Below are positions 4,368 through 56,357 of a DNA stretch of 64,000 nt, in pieces (within the stretch, counting starts at the first letter, position 1; each line of letters begins with the position of its first letter). The position numbers were made by a program, and so were the translations under genes. The stretch lies in assembly GCF_030384885.1 (NCBI RefSeq), contig NZ_CP128613.1, one strand, 5' to 3'. The stretch is from Escherichia coli. Lineage in GTDB: Bacteria > Pseudomonadota > Gammaproteobacteria > Enterobacterales > Enterobacteriaceae. The notes beneath the pieces were generated by a model that was not told where the DNA came from, did no database searches, and worked only from the letters and a program-made list of their open reading frames with translations.

Positions 4368-6610
<2,243 letters not shown>

Positions 6611-6623
6611 TTCCGGTCTCCTG

Positions 6624-7379
6624 TCAGAACTTATAACCACGATGCAGCGCCACAACCCCTGCCGTCAGGTTGTAATAGTCGACACTTTCGAATCCAGCAT
6701 CCTGCATCATAGCTTTCAGGGTGTCCTGATCGGGATGCATGCGGATAGATTCAGCAAGATAACGGTAGCTGTCAGCGTCGTTCGCGACCAGTGAGCCAAT
6801 ACGCGGCAGCACATGGAAGGAGTAAGCGTCATAGGCCTTACTTAACGGCTCGATAATCGGCTTCGAGAACTCAAGCACCAGCAGTCGGCCGCCAGGTTTC
6901 AGAACGCGATACATTGAACGCAGAGCTTTATCTTTGTCAGTGACGTTACGCAGACCAAACGAAATGGTGATGCAATCAAAGGTGTTATCCGGGAACGGCA
7001 GCGCCTCAGCGTTCGCCTGAACATACTCAACGTTGCCAATCACACCAATATTACGCAGCTTCTCGCGGCCCATTTTGAGCATGGATTCATTGATATCAGC
7101 AAGGACCACTTTGCCAGTTTCACCCACCAGGCGGGAGAATTTCGCTGTCAGGTCGCCAGTACCGCCTGCCAGATCCAGCACGGTCTGCCCGCGGCGTACG
7201 CCACTGCAATCAATCGTGAAGCGTTTCCACAAACGATGTATGCCAAAAGACATCAAATCATTCATGACATCGTATTTCGATGCCACGGAATGGAAAACGT
7301 GGGCGACCATATCCGCTTTTTGTTCCTTCGCGACGGTCTGAAAACCAAAGTGCGTCGTTTCTTGTGACTTATCCACCAT
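6624..7379 (-). CDS. ubiE: Ubiquinone/menaquinone C-methyltransferase UbiE
   Basis: 251 aa [41 protein letters not shown]...; SAM-binding LDLAGGTGD motif. Confidence 0.95.
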
Positions 7380-47624: not shown

Positions 47625-48361
47625 GTATCCTGGTCACCCGCCCGTCTCCCGCAGGAGAAGAGTTAGTGAGCCGTCTGCGCACACTGGGGCAGGTGGCCTG
47701 GCATTTTCCGCTGATTGAGTTTTCTCCGGGTCGACAATTACCGCAACTTGCTGATCAACTGGCAGCGCTGGGAGAGAGCGATCTGTTGTTTGCCCTCTCG
47801 CAACACGCGGTTGCTTTTGCCCAATCACAGCTGCATCAGCAAGAGCGTAAATGGCCCCACCTACCCACTTATTTTGCCATTGGACGGACCACCGCACTGG
47901 CGCTACATACCGTAAGCGGACAGAAGATTCTCTACCCGCAGGATCGGGAAATCAGCGAAGTCTTGCTACAATTACCTGAATTACAAAATATTGCGGGCAA
48001 ACGTGCGCTGATATTACGTGGCAATGGCGGTCGTGAGCTAATTGGGGATACCCTGACGGCGCGCGGTGCTGAGGTCACTTTTTGTGAATGTTATCAACGA
48101 TGCGCAATCCATTACGATGGTGCAGAAGAAGCGATGCGCTGGCAATCCCGCGAGGTGACGACGGTCGTTGTTACCAGCGGTGAAATGTTGCAGCAACTCT
48201 GGTCGCTGATCCCACAATGGTATCGTGAGCACTGGTTACTACGCTGCCGACTATTGGTCGTCAGTGAGCGTTTGGCGAAACTCGCCCGGGAACTGGGCTG
48301 GCAAGACATTAAGGTCGCCGATAACGCTGACAACGATGCGCTTTTACGGGCATTACAATAA
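47621..48361 (+). CDS. hemD: Uroporphyrinogen-III synthase
   Basis: 246 aa [34 protein letters not shown]...; 4-bp overlap with hemC. Confidence 0.9.
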
Positions 48362-48382
48362 CTCTCATAACAGGAAGCCATA

Positions 48383-49570
48383 ATGACGGAACAAGAAAAA
48401 ACCTCCGCCGTGGTTGAAGAGACCAGGGAGGCCGTGGACACCACGTCACAACCTGTCGCAACAGAAAAAAAGAGCAAGAACAACACCGCATTGATTCTCA
48501 GCGCGGTGGCTATCGCTATTGCTCTGGCGGCGGGCGTCGGTTTGTATGGCTGGGGTAAACAACAGGCCGTCAATCAGACTGCCACCAGCGATGCCCTGGC
48601 TAACCAACTTACGGCACTGCAAAAAGCCCAGGAGAGCCAAAAAGCCGAGCTGGAAGGCATTATCAAGCAACAAGCTGTACAGCTTGAGCAAGCGAATCGT
48701 CAGCAAGAAACGCTGGCAAAACAGCTGGATGAAGTCCAACAAAAGGTCGCGACTATTTCCGGCAGCGATGCTAAAACCTGGCTGCTGGCCCAGGCTGATT
48801 TCCTGGTGAAACTCGCCGGAAGGAAGCTGTGGAGCGATCAGGACGTCACGACCGCTGCAGCGTTGCTGAAAAGTGCAGATGCCAGCCTGGCGGATATGAA
48901 TGACCCGAGTCTGATTACCGTTCGTCGGGCAATTACCGATGATATCGCCAGCCTTTCTGCGGTATCGCAGGTGGATTATGACGGCATCATCCTTAAGCTG
49001 AATCAGCTTTCTAATCAGGTAGATAACCTGCGTCTGGCCGATAATGACAGCGATGGTTCACCAATGGATTCCGACGGTGAAGAGCTTTCCAGTTCCCTCA
49101 GCGAATGGCGTATCAATCTACAAAAAAGCTGGCAGAACTTTATGGACAACTTCATTACGATTCGCCGTCGTGATGACACCGCCGTACCACTGTTAGCACC
49201 GAATCAGGATATCTATCTGCGCGAAAATATTCGCTCCCGCCTGCTGGTCGCGGCACAAGCCGTACCGCGTCATCAGGAAGAGACTTACCGCCAGGCGCTG
49301 GAGAATGTCTCCACCTGGGTACGTGCTTACTACGATACTGATGATGCCACCACCAAAGCGTTCCTCGACGAGGTGGACCAGTTAAGCCAGCAAAATATCT
49401 CGATGGATCTCCCGGAAACCCTGCAAAGCCAGGCGATGCTGGAAAAACTGATGCAGACCCGCGTGCGTAACCTGCTGGCACAACCGGCAGCAGGGACAAC
49501 GGAAGCTAAACCTGCACCTGCACCTGCACCGCAAGCTGATACTCCGGCAGCCGCGCCGCAAGGAGAATAA
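48383..49570 (+). CDS. hemX: HemX family membrane protein
   Basis: 395 aa; N-terminal TM segment then Q/A-rich coiled coil; conserved position. Confidence 0.9.
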
Positions 49571-49572
49571 CC

Positions 49573-50769
49573 ATGCTAAAAGTGTTATTGCTCTTTGTGT
49601 TGCTGATTGCGGGGATCGTGGTCGGCCCGATGATTGCCGGTCATCAGGGTTACGTGCTGATCCAGACCGATACCTACAATATCGAAACCAGCGTCACGGG
49701 CCTGGCGATCATTTTGATTCTGGCGATGGTAGTGCTGTTTGCCATTGAGTGGCTACTGCGGCGGATCTTCCGCACAGGCGCACACACCCGTGGGTGGTTT
49801 GTCGGACGTAAGCGTCGCCGTGCCCGTAAGCAGACCGAACAGGCGCTGCTGAAACTAGCGGAAGGCGATTATCAGCAAGTTGAAAAGCTGATGGCGAAAA
49901 ATGCCGATCACGCTGAACAACCGGTGGTGAACTATCTGCTGGCTGCCGAAGCCGCGCAACAACGCGGTGATGAAGCACGCGCCAACCAACATCTGGAACG
50001 CGCAGCGGAGCTGGCCGGCAACGACACAATTCCGGTAGAAATCACCCGTGTACGTCTGCAACTGGCCCGTAATGAAAACCATGCAGCACGTCACGGCGTT
50101 GATAAGCTGCTGGAAGTTACGCCACGCCATCCGGAAGTATTACGTCTGGCGGAACAGGCGTATATCCGCACTGGTGCATGGAGTTCGCTGCTGGATATCA
50201 TCCCATCAATGGCAAAAGCCCACGTTGGCGATGAAGAGCATCGTGCAATGCTGGAACAACAGGCATGGATTGGCCTGATGGATCAGGCGCGTGCCGATAA
50301 CGGTAGCGAAGGTTTGCGTAACTGGTGGAAAAACCAAAGCCGGAAAACGCGTCATCAGGTGGCGTTACAGGTGGCAATGGCGGAACATCTTATTGAATGT
50401 GACGATCATGATACTGCCCAGCAAATTATCATCGACGGCCTGAAACGCCAGTATGACGATCGCCTGCTGCTGCCGATCCCGCGTCTGAAAACCAATAACC
50501 CGGAACAGCTGGAAAAAGTGCTGCGCCAACAGATCAAAAACGTGGGCGATCGCCCGTTGTTGTGGAGCACACTGGGTCAGTCGCTGATGAAGCACGGCGA
50601 ATGGCAGGAAGCATCGCTCGCCTTCCGCGCGGCGCTGAAACAACGTCCGGACGCCTACGATTACGCATGGCTTGCCGACGCGCTGGACAGACTGCACAAG
50701 CCGGAAGAAGCCGCAGCGATGCGTCGCGATGGCTTGATGTTAACGTTGCAGAACAACCCGCCACAGTAG
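49573..50769 (+). CDS. hemY: HemY protein (TPR-containing inner-membrane protein)
   Basis: 398 aa MLKVLLLFVLLIAGIVVGPMIAGHQGYVLIQTDTYNIETS... Confidence 0.9.
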   Translation: MLKVLLLFVLLIAGIVVGPMIAGHQGYVLIQTDTYNIETSVTGLAIILILAMVVLFAIEWLLRRIFRTGAHTRGWFVGRKRRRARKQTEQALLKLAEGDYQQVEKLMAKNADHAEQPVVNYLLAAEAAQQRGDEARANQHLERAAELAGNDTIPVEITRVRLQLARNENHAARHGVDKLLEVTPRHPEVLRLAEQAYIRTGAWSSLLDIIPSMAKAHVGDEEHRAMLEQQAWIGLMDQARADNGSEGLRNWWKNQSRKTRHQVALQVAMAEHLIECDDHDTAQQIIIDGLKRQYDDRLLLPIPRLKTNNPEQLEKVLRQQIKNVGDRPLLWSTLGQSLMKHGEWQEASLAFRAALKQRPDAYDYAWLADALDRLHKPEEAAAMRRDGLMLTLQNNPPQ

Positions 50770-50780
50770 CTCTTTCTCAC

Positions 50781-50805
50781 CCGGAGGCAAGCACCTCCGG
50801 GGCCT
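50781..50805 (+). terminator. Hairpin CCCGGAGG-caagca-CCTCCGGG immediately after hemY; putative rho-independent terminator
   Basis: Inverted repeat followed by a T-rich stretch. Confidence 0.45.
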
Positions 50806-50816
50806 TTCTGATATAT

Positions 50817-51013
50817 AAAAAAACGCCTGCTCTTATTACGGAGCAGGCGTTAAAACAGGTCTGTATGACAACAAGTGGGTGCTTCACTCAACGTTGTGTC
50901 CATGGTGTCTGATGAGGCATAAGCGACATCTGTCAGTGGACGATAAGCACCGTAAACGGCTCTGCGTCATTCCGGAGTTTATGAGGCACTAAGGCGAACA
51001 TAAGAGATGGAAT
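50817..51013 (-). ncRNA. glmZ: Small RNA GlmZ (SraJ/RyiA), regulator of glmS
   Basis: Reverse strand reads GTAGATGCTCATTCCATCTCTTATGTTCGCCTTAGTGCCTCATAAACTCCGGAATGACGCAGAGCCG... and ends in terminator GCCTGCTCCGTAATAAGAGCAGGCGTTTTTTT; matches GlmZ as recalled and its known hemY-aslA intergenic position; exact 5' end within a few nt. Confidence 0.8.
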
Positions 51014-52898
51014 GAGCATCTACTCGTTTATTATGCCACAGAGAACCGGGAAATAACATCCCTTAACACTTGTTATGAGATAATTCTGTAATCCTCTTTG
51101 CTTCCTGAGTAATAACTTCCTGAGTGAATATTTCTCCTGCGCACGATTCTACACATATATATAATGAATAATAAAAGTCATTCAATTAATAACATATATA
51201 TTAATTGCCGTTAAAACTAAAAACAGCATCAATAATCAACGCGATATAACATCACCGCCTTACATATCACCTGCGCCAGAGGTAGGATTGAAAACGCTCT
51301 CCTGATTTTCCAATTCATTATCTGGATAAATAAATAATTTATTTTTATCACTATTATTTATGCAATCATCCTGTCAGGGAGAAGGATCTCAATTATCAAT
51401 GCTTAATTACGTCAACATTTTGACGACATGAAACCGGAGCATTTTGCATGGAATTTTCGTTTTCACCCAAACTTCTTGTTGTGGCTGTCGCCGCCGCTCT
51501 TCCACTCATGGCCAGCGCAGCAGATACCCCGTCAACCGCCACCGCACGCAAAGGCTTTGCCGGATACGATCACCCAAACCAGTATCTGGTTAAACCGGCG
51601 ACCACTATTGCCGACAACATGATGCCGGTGATGCAGCATCCTGCACAAGACAAAGAAACCCAGCAGAAACTGGCGGAACTTGAGAAAAAAACCGGTAAGA
51701 AACCGAACGTGGTTGTTTTCTTGCTGGATGATGTGGGCTGGATGGACGTTGGCTTTAACGGCGGCGGCGTGGCGGTGGGTAACCCTACACCAGATATCGA
51801 CGCCGTTGCCAGCCAGGGGCTGATTTTAACTTCGGCGTATTCTCAACCGAGTTCTTCCCCAACCCGCGCCACGATTCTCACCGGACAATACTCCATCCAC
51901 CACGGCATTCTGATGCCGCCAATGTACGGGCAACCGGGCGGTCTGCAAGGGTTAACCACGCTGCCACAGTTGCTGCACGATCAGGGCTACGTCACCCAGG
52001 CTATCGGGAAATGGCATATGGGGGAAAACAAAGAGTCGCAGCCGCAGAACGTTGGCTTTGATGATTTCCGCGGCTTTAACTCGGTATCTGATATGTATAC
52101 CGAATGGCGTGATGTTCATGTCAACCCGGAAGTCGCCCTGAGCCCGGATCGTTCTGAATACATCCAAAAACTGCCGTTCAGCAAAGATGACGTTCATGCC
52201 GTGCGCGGCGGTGAACAGGAAGCCATTGCCGACATTACGCCGAAATATATGGAAGATCTGGATCAACGCTGGATGGAATATGGCGTTAAGTTCCTCGACA
52301 AGATGGCGAAGAGCGATAAGCCTTTCTTCCTCTACTACGGCACTCGCGGCTGTCACTTCGATAACTACCCAAATGCGAAATATGCGGGTAGCTCTCCGGC
52401 GCGCACCTCTTACGGCGACTGCATGGTGGAGATGAACGATATCTTCGCCAATCTGTATAAAGCACTGGAGAAAAACGGTCAGCTTGATAACACGCTGATT
52501 GTGTTCACCTCTGATAACGGTCCGGAAGCTGAAGTTCCGCCGCACGGTCGCACGCCGTTCCGCGGTGCGAAAGGTTCTACATGGGAAGGCGGCGTTCGTG
52601 TGCCAACCTTCGTTTACTGGAAAGGGATGATCCAACCGCGTAAATCTGACGGTATTGTCGATCTGGCGGATCTCTTCCCTACGGCGCTGGATCTGGCAGG
52701 ACATCCTGGAGCGAAAGTGGCGAATTTAGTGCCGAAAACCACCTTTATTGATGGTGTGGACCAGACATCTTTCTTCCTGGGAACAAATGGTCAGTCTAAC
52801 CGTAAGGCCGAGCACTACTTCCTCAATGGCAAACTTTCTGCTGTGCGTATGGATGAGTTCAAGTATCACGTCCTGATCCAGCAACCGTACGCGTATAC

Positions 52899-54148
<1,250 letters not shown>

Positions 54149-54400
54149 CCACTACATACCCAGAGCGGGTATCAGGGTGGATTCACCGGCACTGTAATGC
54201 AAACGGCGGGATCGTCGGTGTTTAACCTGTACACCGATCCGCAGGAAAGCGACTCTATCGGCGTGCGCCATATCCCAATGGGTGTACCGCTACAGACCGA
54301 AATGCACGCGTATATGGAGATCCTGAAAAAATATCCGCCGCGCGCGCAGATTAAATCTGATTAAGCCGGCGCTATCGCTACATCGGGCCACACTGACCTT

Positions 54401-55920: not shown

Positions 55921-55997
55921 TGGTCGGCGAGAGAGGATTCGAACCTCCGACCCACTGGTCCCAAACCAGTTGCGCTACCAAGCTGCGCTACTCGCCG
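55921..55997 (-). tRNA. proM: tRNA-Pro (anticodon UGG)
   Basis: Reverse complement CGGCGAGTAGCGCAGCTTGGTAGCGCAACTGGTTTGGGACCAGTGGGTCGGAGGTTCGAATCCTCTCTCGCCGACCA; cloverleaf with UUUGGGA anticodon loop. Confidence 0.95.
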
Positions 55998-56039
55998 AAA
56001 TACTGCTTTTTGAATTTTTAGTTCAATTCTTTAAAGTCG

Positions 56040-56126
56040 TGGTGCGAGGGGGGGGACTTGAACCCCCACGTCCGTAAGGACACTAACACCTGAAGCTAGC
56101 GCGTCTACCAATTCCGCCACCTTCGC
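56040..56126 (-). tRNA. leuT: tRNA-Leu (anticodon CAG), 87 nt with long variable arm
   Basis: Reverse complement GCGAAGGTGGCGGAATTGGTAGACGCGCTAGCTTCAGGTGTTAGTGTCCTTACGGACGTGGGGGTTCAAGTCCCCCCCCTCGCACCA. Confidence 0.95.
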
Positions 56127-56146
56127 ATTGTCACAACTTCTAATAA

Positions 56147-56223
56147 TGGGGTGGCTAATGGGATTCGAACCCACGACAACTGGAATCACAATCCAGGGCT
56201 CTACCAACTGAGCTATAGCCACC
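56147..56223 (-). tRNA. hisR: tRNA-His (anticodon GUG) with G-1
   Basis: Reverse complement GGTGGCTATAGCTCAGTTGGTAGAGCCCTGGATTGTGATTCCAGTTGTCGTGGGTTCGAATCCCATTAGCCACCCCA. Confidence 0.95.
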
Positions 56224-56280
56224 ACTACAAATCTTGTTACGCGGTATTACTACCACCGCAGCTCAAGCGCCGGGACTAAA

Positions 56281-56357
<77 letters not shown>

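Follow-up and report, generated by a model that had tools for sequence, protein, structure and literature searches.

The minus-strand interval 50817..51023 of the window (the whole stretch of 64,000 nucleotides of Escherichia coli DNA that was analysed) is, with a probability of about 98%, the chromosomal glmZ gene of this strain. It is an ordinary, conserved and already known gene, to which this copy brings nothing new, and its presence here is biologically nothing new. What the analysis supplies are the corrected coordinates of the gene, together with an instance of a first-stage reader being able to recognise a known small RNA from raw sequence.

Identity and extent of the glmZ gene

A search of the whole window with Rfam 15 at gathering thresholds gives a match to GlmZ_SraJ (RF00083) at 51023..50817 on the minus strand, with a score of 218.4 bits and an E-value of 3.4e-56. 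The match spans positions 1-214 of the 214 in the model and shows no truncation. Beneath it cmscan suppressed a single overlapping match of lower score from the same clan. Alignment with glmZ of E. coli K-12 MG1655 (b4456; NC_000913.3 from 3986432) shows 207 of 207 bases to be identical, as they also are in strain 2013C-4282. The same Rfam model matches the K-12 and 2013C-4282 loci with a score equal to that in the window, and in K-12 the match begins exactly at the annotated start of b4456. The initial annotation had proposed a GlmZ small RNA on the reverse strand and had named an Rfam scan and an alignment with annotated E. coli glmZ as checks; the full-length match, far above the gathering score of 60 bits, and the identity of all 207 bases and of the start position bear this proposal out.

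50817..51023, minus strand: glmZ gene, primary transcript of 207 nt (from the Rfam match and identity with K-12)

The 5' end of the RNA, GUAGAUGCUCAUUCC, begins at 51023, and the minus strand from this position downward reads GTAGATGCTCATTCC.... The upper boundary had originally been placed at 51013, which is 10 nt short; the 5' motif quoted in its support occupies 51023..51009, so the gene extends over 50817..51023. The 3' boundary at 50817 was correct, and both the GlmZ 5' sequence and the intrinsic terminator that had been claimed are present, as read from the minus strand and from a terminator scan. In what follows nucleotide n of the RNA corresponds to window position 51024-n.

GlmZ of K-12 MG1655 (also SraJ or RyiA, b4456) thus shares with the present copy its 207 nt, start site, terminator, position between aslA and hemY, and distance of 424 nt to the aslA start. 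The K-12 RefSeq record annotates only 172 nt as glmZ, whereas the Rfam match here covers 207 nt; the published primary transcript is 207 nt long (PMC4152352). Among the records compared, glmZ is annotated only in the curated K-12 record. The automatic NCBI annotation has no feature beneath the glmZ match among the complete E. coli genomes listed, nor in the closest locus, that of 2013C-4282.

Genomic context

The glmZ gene is convergent with hemY, the stop codon of which lies 47 nt from the glmZ 3' end, and divergent from aslA, with 424 nt between the glmZ transcription start (+1) and the aslA start codon as in K-12. The names hemY and aslA are taken from the RefSeq annotation of loci that are 99.9% and about 96% identical to the window.

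49573..50769, plus strand: hemY coding sequence, 398 aa (from the open reading frame and RefSeq annotation of matching loci)
50780..50801, plus strand: G+C-rich hairpin CCCGGAGG-N6-CCTCCGGG (read from the sequence; conserved in K-12)
51448..52898, plus strand: 5' portion of aslA, cut by an insertion sequence at 52899 (from the list of open reading frames; aslA is an intact 1656 nt in K-12 and 2013C-4282)

The placement between hemY and aslA that had been given is confirmed by these reading frames and by the annotation of the matching loci, and the intergenic distance, put at about 680 bp, is 678 bp from the hemY end at 50769 to the aslA start at 51448. The region had further been described as AT-rich. 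This holds for the part between glmZ and aslA, where the GC content over 51000-51500 is 0.33-0.36 against 0.52-0.61 in the flanking genes, but not for GlmZ itself, which has a GC content of 47%. An aslA promoter had also been placed in the region; its presence follows from the gene arrangement, but it was not located by the consensus scan, which returned no plus-strand sigma-70-like site for it in the intergenic region.

The gene order in 2013C-4282 and K-12 MG1655 (RefSeq) is thrP, argX-hisR-leuT-proM, aslB, aslA, (glmZ), hemY, hemX, hemD, hemC. The hairpin at 50780..50801 starts 11 nt past the hemY stop codon, between the convergent 3' ends of hemY and glmZ, and is probably the terminator of hemCDXY. 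The hemX reading frame (48383..49570, plus strand) is polymorphic in length, encoding a protein of 395 aa in the window as against 393 aa in K-12 and 401 aa in 2013C-4282, and an indel of 18 nt separates the window from 2013C-4282 somewhere within 48001..52898. The four tRNA genes at 55924..56357 on the minus strand correspond to the argX-hisR-leuT-proM cluster annotated in both K-12 and 2013C-4282.

Architecture of the RNA

The RNA consists of two large stem-loops, a single-stranded region and a terminator hairpin that ends in a run of uridines. The letters of the terminator hairpin are AACGCCTGCTC-CGTAATAA-GAGCAGGCGTT, followed by TTTTTTT.

50959..51023, minus strand: stem-loop SL1, nt 1-65 (Rfam consensus structure mapped on the sequence)
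50878..50951, minus strand: stem-loop SL2, nt 73-146 (Rfam consensus structure mapped on the sequence)
50852..50877, minus strand: single-stranded region CACUUGUUGUCAUACAGACCUGUUUU, 26 nt, nt 147-172 (length and position as published)
50822..50851, minus strand: terminator SL3, nt 173-202, with an 11-bp stem and an 8-nt loop (terminator scan)
50821..50817, minus strand: U tail (U7), nt 203-207 (read from the sequence and terminator scan)

Each of these elements has a described role in the K-12 RNA. SL1 and SL2 are contacted by RapZ, as seen by cryo-EM (PMC9841335), and SL2 has a role in GlmZ cleavage (PMC4737144). The single-stranded region, published as 26 nt long, contains the glmS base-pairing site and an Hfq-binding module, and the oligo(U) tail is an Hfq-binding determinant (PMC4737144). 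The same work states that cleavage at 152/153 occurs 6 nt downstream of SL2, which puts the end of SL2 at nt 146 as mapped here. The RNase E cleavage sites are reported as 153/154 and 155/156 (PMC4737144); these correspond to 50871|50870 and 50869|50868 in the window and both fall within the heptamer UGUUGUC. Folding of the single sequence gives a z-score of -3.3 against dinucleotide shuffles.

Conservation and comparative structure

Among 5426 complete E. coli genomes the 207-nt glmZ is at least 99% identical in 5424, with a median of one copy per genome. The remaining two genomes contain no match to the 207 nt; a few genomes contain a second copy, and in one case the match is on a record classified as plasmid. 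The surrounding 801 bp are present in 5425 of the 5426 genomes, with the best match (99.9%) in 2013C-4282 and most at 95-99% identity, and this longer region is at least 99% identical in only 27 genomes as against 5424 for the RNA. The RNA is therefore under stronger constraint than its surroundings.

Homologues were sought in a collection of species-representative genomes with the exact pattern AACGTTGAGTGANGCNCC, which gave 120 loci, 93 of them with a GlmZ-like unit. They come from Citrobacter, Enterobacter, Salmonella, Yersinia, Serratia, Pectobacterium, Brenneria, Providencia, Proteus, Morganella and others. The alignment (A2) comprises 93 sequences, namely 92 homologues and the window sequence. 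The homologue left out, L097:2825-3084 on the minus strand, is 260 nt long and has an insertion of about 55 nt in apical SL2.

The GlmZ fold is supported by covariation in these Enterobacterales homologues. When the Rfam-derived structure is placed on the 93 sequences, standard pairs occupy 88.8% of the pair cells, compared with 35-39.6% when the 3' partners are slid. Double-sided changes occur at 11 pairs of this structure, 8 of which are among the 11 pairs of the terminator stem. An independent prediction by RNAalifold contains SL1 and SL2, the terminator and, within the single-stranded region, a mini-hairpin of 3 bp; 12 of its pairs show compensatory changes. The outer helix of SL1 is kept in all 93 sequences and shows compensatory changes between UA and CG at two pairs. 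In SL2 three helices are 98-100% paired across the alignment, with an exchange between UA and CG in 37 sequences at one pair; for SL2 and the terminator together the helices are between 93 and 100% paired. The two inner helices that the Rfam consensus gives SL1 were not retained, as only 26.6% and 65.4% of their cells are paired in the 93 sequences when mapped via the window sequence. An alternative inner SL1 helix from RNAalifold, with four invariant pairs, fits better.

The genomic setting of the homologues is conserved on one side. A hemY homologue is convergent and downstream of glmZ in 84 of the 86 homologue loci with enough flanking sequence, and aslA lies upstream in only 4 of 93. This reproduces the published observation that glmZ clusters with hemCDXY and that its upstream side is variable (PMC3045617). 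GlmZ of Salmonella, Yersinia, Serratia, Proteus and other Enterobacterales resembles the present RNA in its conserved SL1, SL2 and terminator and in its convergent downstream hemY. The homologues from Moellerella, Morganella, Providencia and Proteus do not contain UGUUGUC and instead read CC(A)GUCUGUAGACCUG at columns 187-200 of A2 (loci L023, L034, L036, L046, L060, L061, L065, L084, L090, L091 and L095, plus unlisted loci of identical sequence). The pairing with glmS must therefore be arranged differently in these genera.

The promoter and the upstream spacer

The sequence upstream of the glmZ +1 is TGTGGCATAATAAACGA. It contains an extended -10 element, TGgCATAAT, at 51038..51030 and a weak -35-like element, ATGTTAT, at 51059..51053, about 17-18 bp upstream of the -10.

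51024..51063, minus strand: glmZ promoter region, -1 to -40 (read from the sequence; near-identical to K-12)

In K-12 a single constitutive sigma-70 promoter drives glmZ and the region -40..+32 is sufficient (Gopel et al. 2011; PMC3045617). The K-12 promoter does not require sequences upstream of -40 for its activity, and the E. coli glmZ is not bound by GlrR and is independent of RpoN (PMC3045617). The glmZ promoter of the window was missed by a generic sigma-70 scan, its -35 element being too weak for the rule of that scan; it is assigned instead through its near-identity to the promoter that the cited study dissected in K-12. From -1 to about -110 the window is the same as K-12 except for a G in place of A at -23. 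This G is common to 2013C-4282, and G likewise occupies the aligned spacer column in L026, a divergent E. coli locus. The A-to-G change falls in the spacer between the promoter elements and most likely has no effect.

The upstream regions were also scored for the sigma-54 consensus, TGGCAC-N5-TTGCA at the right distance, over 11 positions and for its GG/GC core. Upstream of glmZ in the window there is no such -24/-12 element, the best agreement being 5 of 11 positions with no GG/GC core, equal to K-12; E. albertii and another E. coli reach 5-6 of 11. The possibility that the G at -23 creates a sigma-54 element is rejected on the same values. By contrast, 79 of the 92 other upstream regions scored match at 8-10 of 11 positions with the GG/GC core. 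Most other Enterobacterales GlmZ genes thus have a sigma-54 promoter whereas the Escherichia copies, including that in the window, do not, which agrees with the earlier work (PMC3045617). As read from its letters, the promoter is of the Escherichia sigma-70 type with no sigma-54 or GlrR elements.

Further upstream the AT-rich spacer differs from K-12 by about 25 substitutions. These cluster at 51130..51270 (-110 to -250 relative to glmZ), and the segment from -1 to -110 and the RNA are almost invariant. Across genomes the spacer between aslA and glmZ evolves much faster than GlmZ, with 95-99% identity against at least 99%. The spacer also holds a tandem direct repeat of ACTCAGGAAG with a period of 15, at 51125..51116 and 51110..51101 on the minus strand (-78..-102 from the glmZ +1). 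K-12 has the repeat in identical form, but in E. albertii and a divergent E. coli lineage it is degenerate. It was dropped as a candidate regulator site, being unconserved beyond typical E. coli and lying in the region upstream of -40 that is dispensable in K-12 (PMC3045617).

Pairing with glmS and proposed mode of action

None of the genes glmS, glmY, rapZ, hfq and rne is located within the 64 kb of the window, and the pairing test was therefore made on the K-12 glmS leader. Sliding windows of 30 nt of GlmZ were scanned against the K-12 glmU-glmS intercistronic region. The best local duplex joins nt 151-180 of GlmZ to positions -48..-22 of K-12 glmS with an energy of -23.8 kcal/mol. Within it UGUUGUC is matched to GACAACG and GACCUGU to ACAGGUU; on the glmS strand the duplex occupies the 5' arm of a hairpin predicted in the leader. 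Values of about -21 kcal/mol are attained by unrelated windows of 30 nt. With so small a margin over background (about 2.5 kcal/mol), the duplex supports the pairing model only when taken together with the identity of this RNA to the one validated in K-12. An earlier comparison of full-length GlmZ with the glmS leader by RNAduplex gave end-to-end pairing, with 481 of 500 shuffles at least as good, and was replaced by the 30-nt scan.

Glucosamine-6-phosphate is the first committed precursor of peptidoglycan and lipopolysaccharide, and GlmY, GlmZ, RapZ and RNase E form the textbook circuit that holds it at the right level. The same circuit gives intrinsic tolerance to antibiotics that inhibit GlmS. 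By analogy with the identical K-12 RNA, GlmZ in this strain would be transcribed constitutively and, together with Hfq, its single-stranded region would base-pair to the 5' arm of the glmS hairpin in which the ribosome-binding site is hidden. Opening of this hairpin would activate translation of the glucosamine-6-phosphate synthase mRNA and stabilise it. At high levels of glucosamine-6-phosphate, the adaptor RapZ would bind SL1 and SL2 and present GlmZ to RNase E, which would cut within the pairing sequence (153/154 and 155/156) and leave an inactive species of about 151-155 nt. When glucosamine-6-phosphate is scarce, the homologous decoy GlmY would sequester RapZ, allowing full-length GlmZ to accumulate. 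These steps follow the published scheme of Hfq-assisted anti-antisense activation of glmS, inactivation by RapZ and RNase E, and the GlmY decoy (PMC4152352; PMC4737144; PMC9841335), in which the glmS leader hairpin sequesters the Shine-Dalgarno sequence (PMC4152352).

An IS3-family insertion in aslA

An IS3-family element of 1258 bp (52899..54156, plus strand) is inserted in aslA, about 1451 nt into the 1656 nt of the gene, which is thus a probable pseudogene in this strain. The element begins with TG and ends with CA, has terminal inverted repeats that are imperfect, and lies between the two copies of a 3-bp target duplication, TAC, at 52896-52898 and 54157-54159. It contains orfA with an HTH_Tnp_1 domain and orfB with an rve domain; nearly identical copies at other sites bear the annotation IS3 family transposase, and the element is multi-copy in E. 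coli. At this site the element is absent from K-12 and 2013C-4282, and both junctions together occur in no complete E. coli genome of the collection. The best hit to the element that seemed to include the right-hand aslA junction (H28) was rejected as a shared insertion, as it lies in an unrelated island.

Within the element Rfam reports the isrC Hfq binding RNA (RF01387) at 52967..53089 on the plus strand, at full length and with 145 bits. The match corresponds to positions 69-191 of the element, overlaps the start of orfA, and has no counterpart in the K-12 and 2013C-4282 loci. In this window the family thus matches insertion-sequence DNA and not a chromosomal small RNA gene.

Alternative readings

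The strain might carry in its local context something that affects the neighbouring genes. It is very unlikely that the 424-nt spacer between aslA and glmZ contains a strain-variable regulatory element, or that the change at -23 or the IS3-family insertion tunes the expression of glmZ or aslA in this lineage. That either of these two changes has altered or silenced an otherwise intact glmZ is highly improbable: the promoter does differ from K-12 by a substitution between the -35 and -10 elements, and the 1258-bp insertion in aslA is missing from the K-12 and 2013C-4282 loci, but the G at -23 is shared with 2013C-4282 and L026, the K-12 promoter needs nothing upstream of -40 (PMC3045617), and the insertion lies 1.9 kb from the glmZ promoter on the far side of the aslA start.

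The identity of the RNA itself could be questioned in that GlmZ has a paralogous decoy, GlmY, which acts by sequestering RapZ only and does not pair with glmS. GlmY (SroF/Tke1) belongs to the same Rfam clan (CL00011), is homologous to GlmZ in sequence and structure (PMC4152352), and like it has a three-stem-loop architecture and binds RapZ; the one match suppressed by cmscan comes from this clan. However, the GlmZ model won the clan competition with 218 bits, the sequence is identical to that of b4456, and the locus is hemY-aslA, whereas glmY lies next to glrK/qseE, in the purL-glrK region (PMC3045617). The single-stranded region, moreover, has 26 nt and carries the UGUUGUC...GACCUGU complementarity to glmS, unlike that of GlmY, which has 12 nt and no such complementarity (PMC4737144). 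With its GlmZ-type 26-nt region and locus, the RNA is extremely improbable as a GlmY. A chance resemblance or a degenerate relic devoid of function can practically be disregarded in view of the E-value of 3.4e-56 over the full model, near-invariance in 5424 genomes and a fold supported by covariation. The preferred reading is thus that of a chromosomal glmZ gene.

A coding-sequence match near 6 kb

Elsewhere in the window Rfam reports an 'Erse small RNA' (RF02757) at 6005..6256 on the minus strand, at full length and with 318 bits. The match coincides exactly with the final 252 nt, counting the stop codon, of an open reading frame of 216 aa at 6005..6655, which sits between reading frames of 251 aa (6624..7379) and 546 aa (4368..6008). 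From inspection by eye, the 216-, 251- and 546-aa frames are presumably ubiJ/yigP, ubiE and ubiB, respectively. As the match coincides with the end of a reading frame, the claimed small RNA is the 3' part of a coding sequence.
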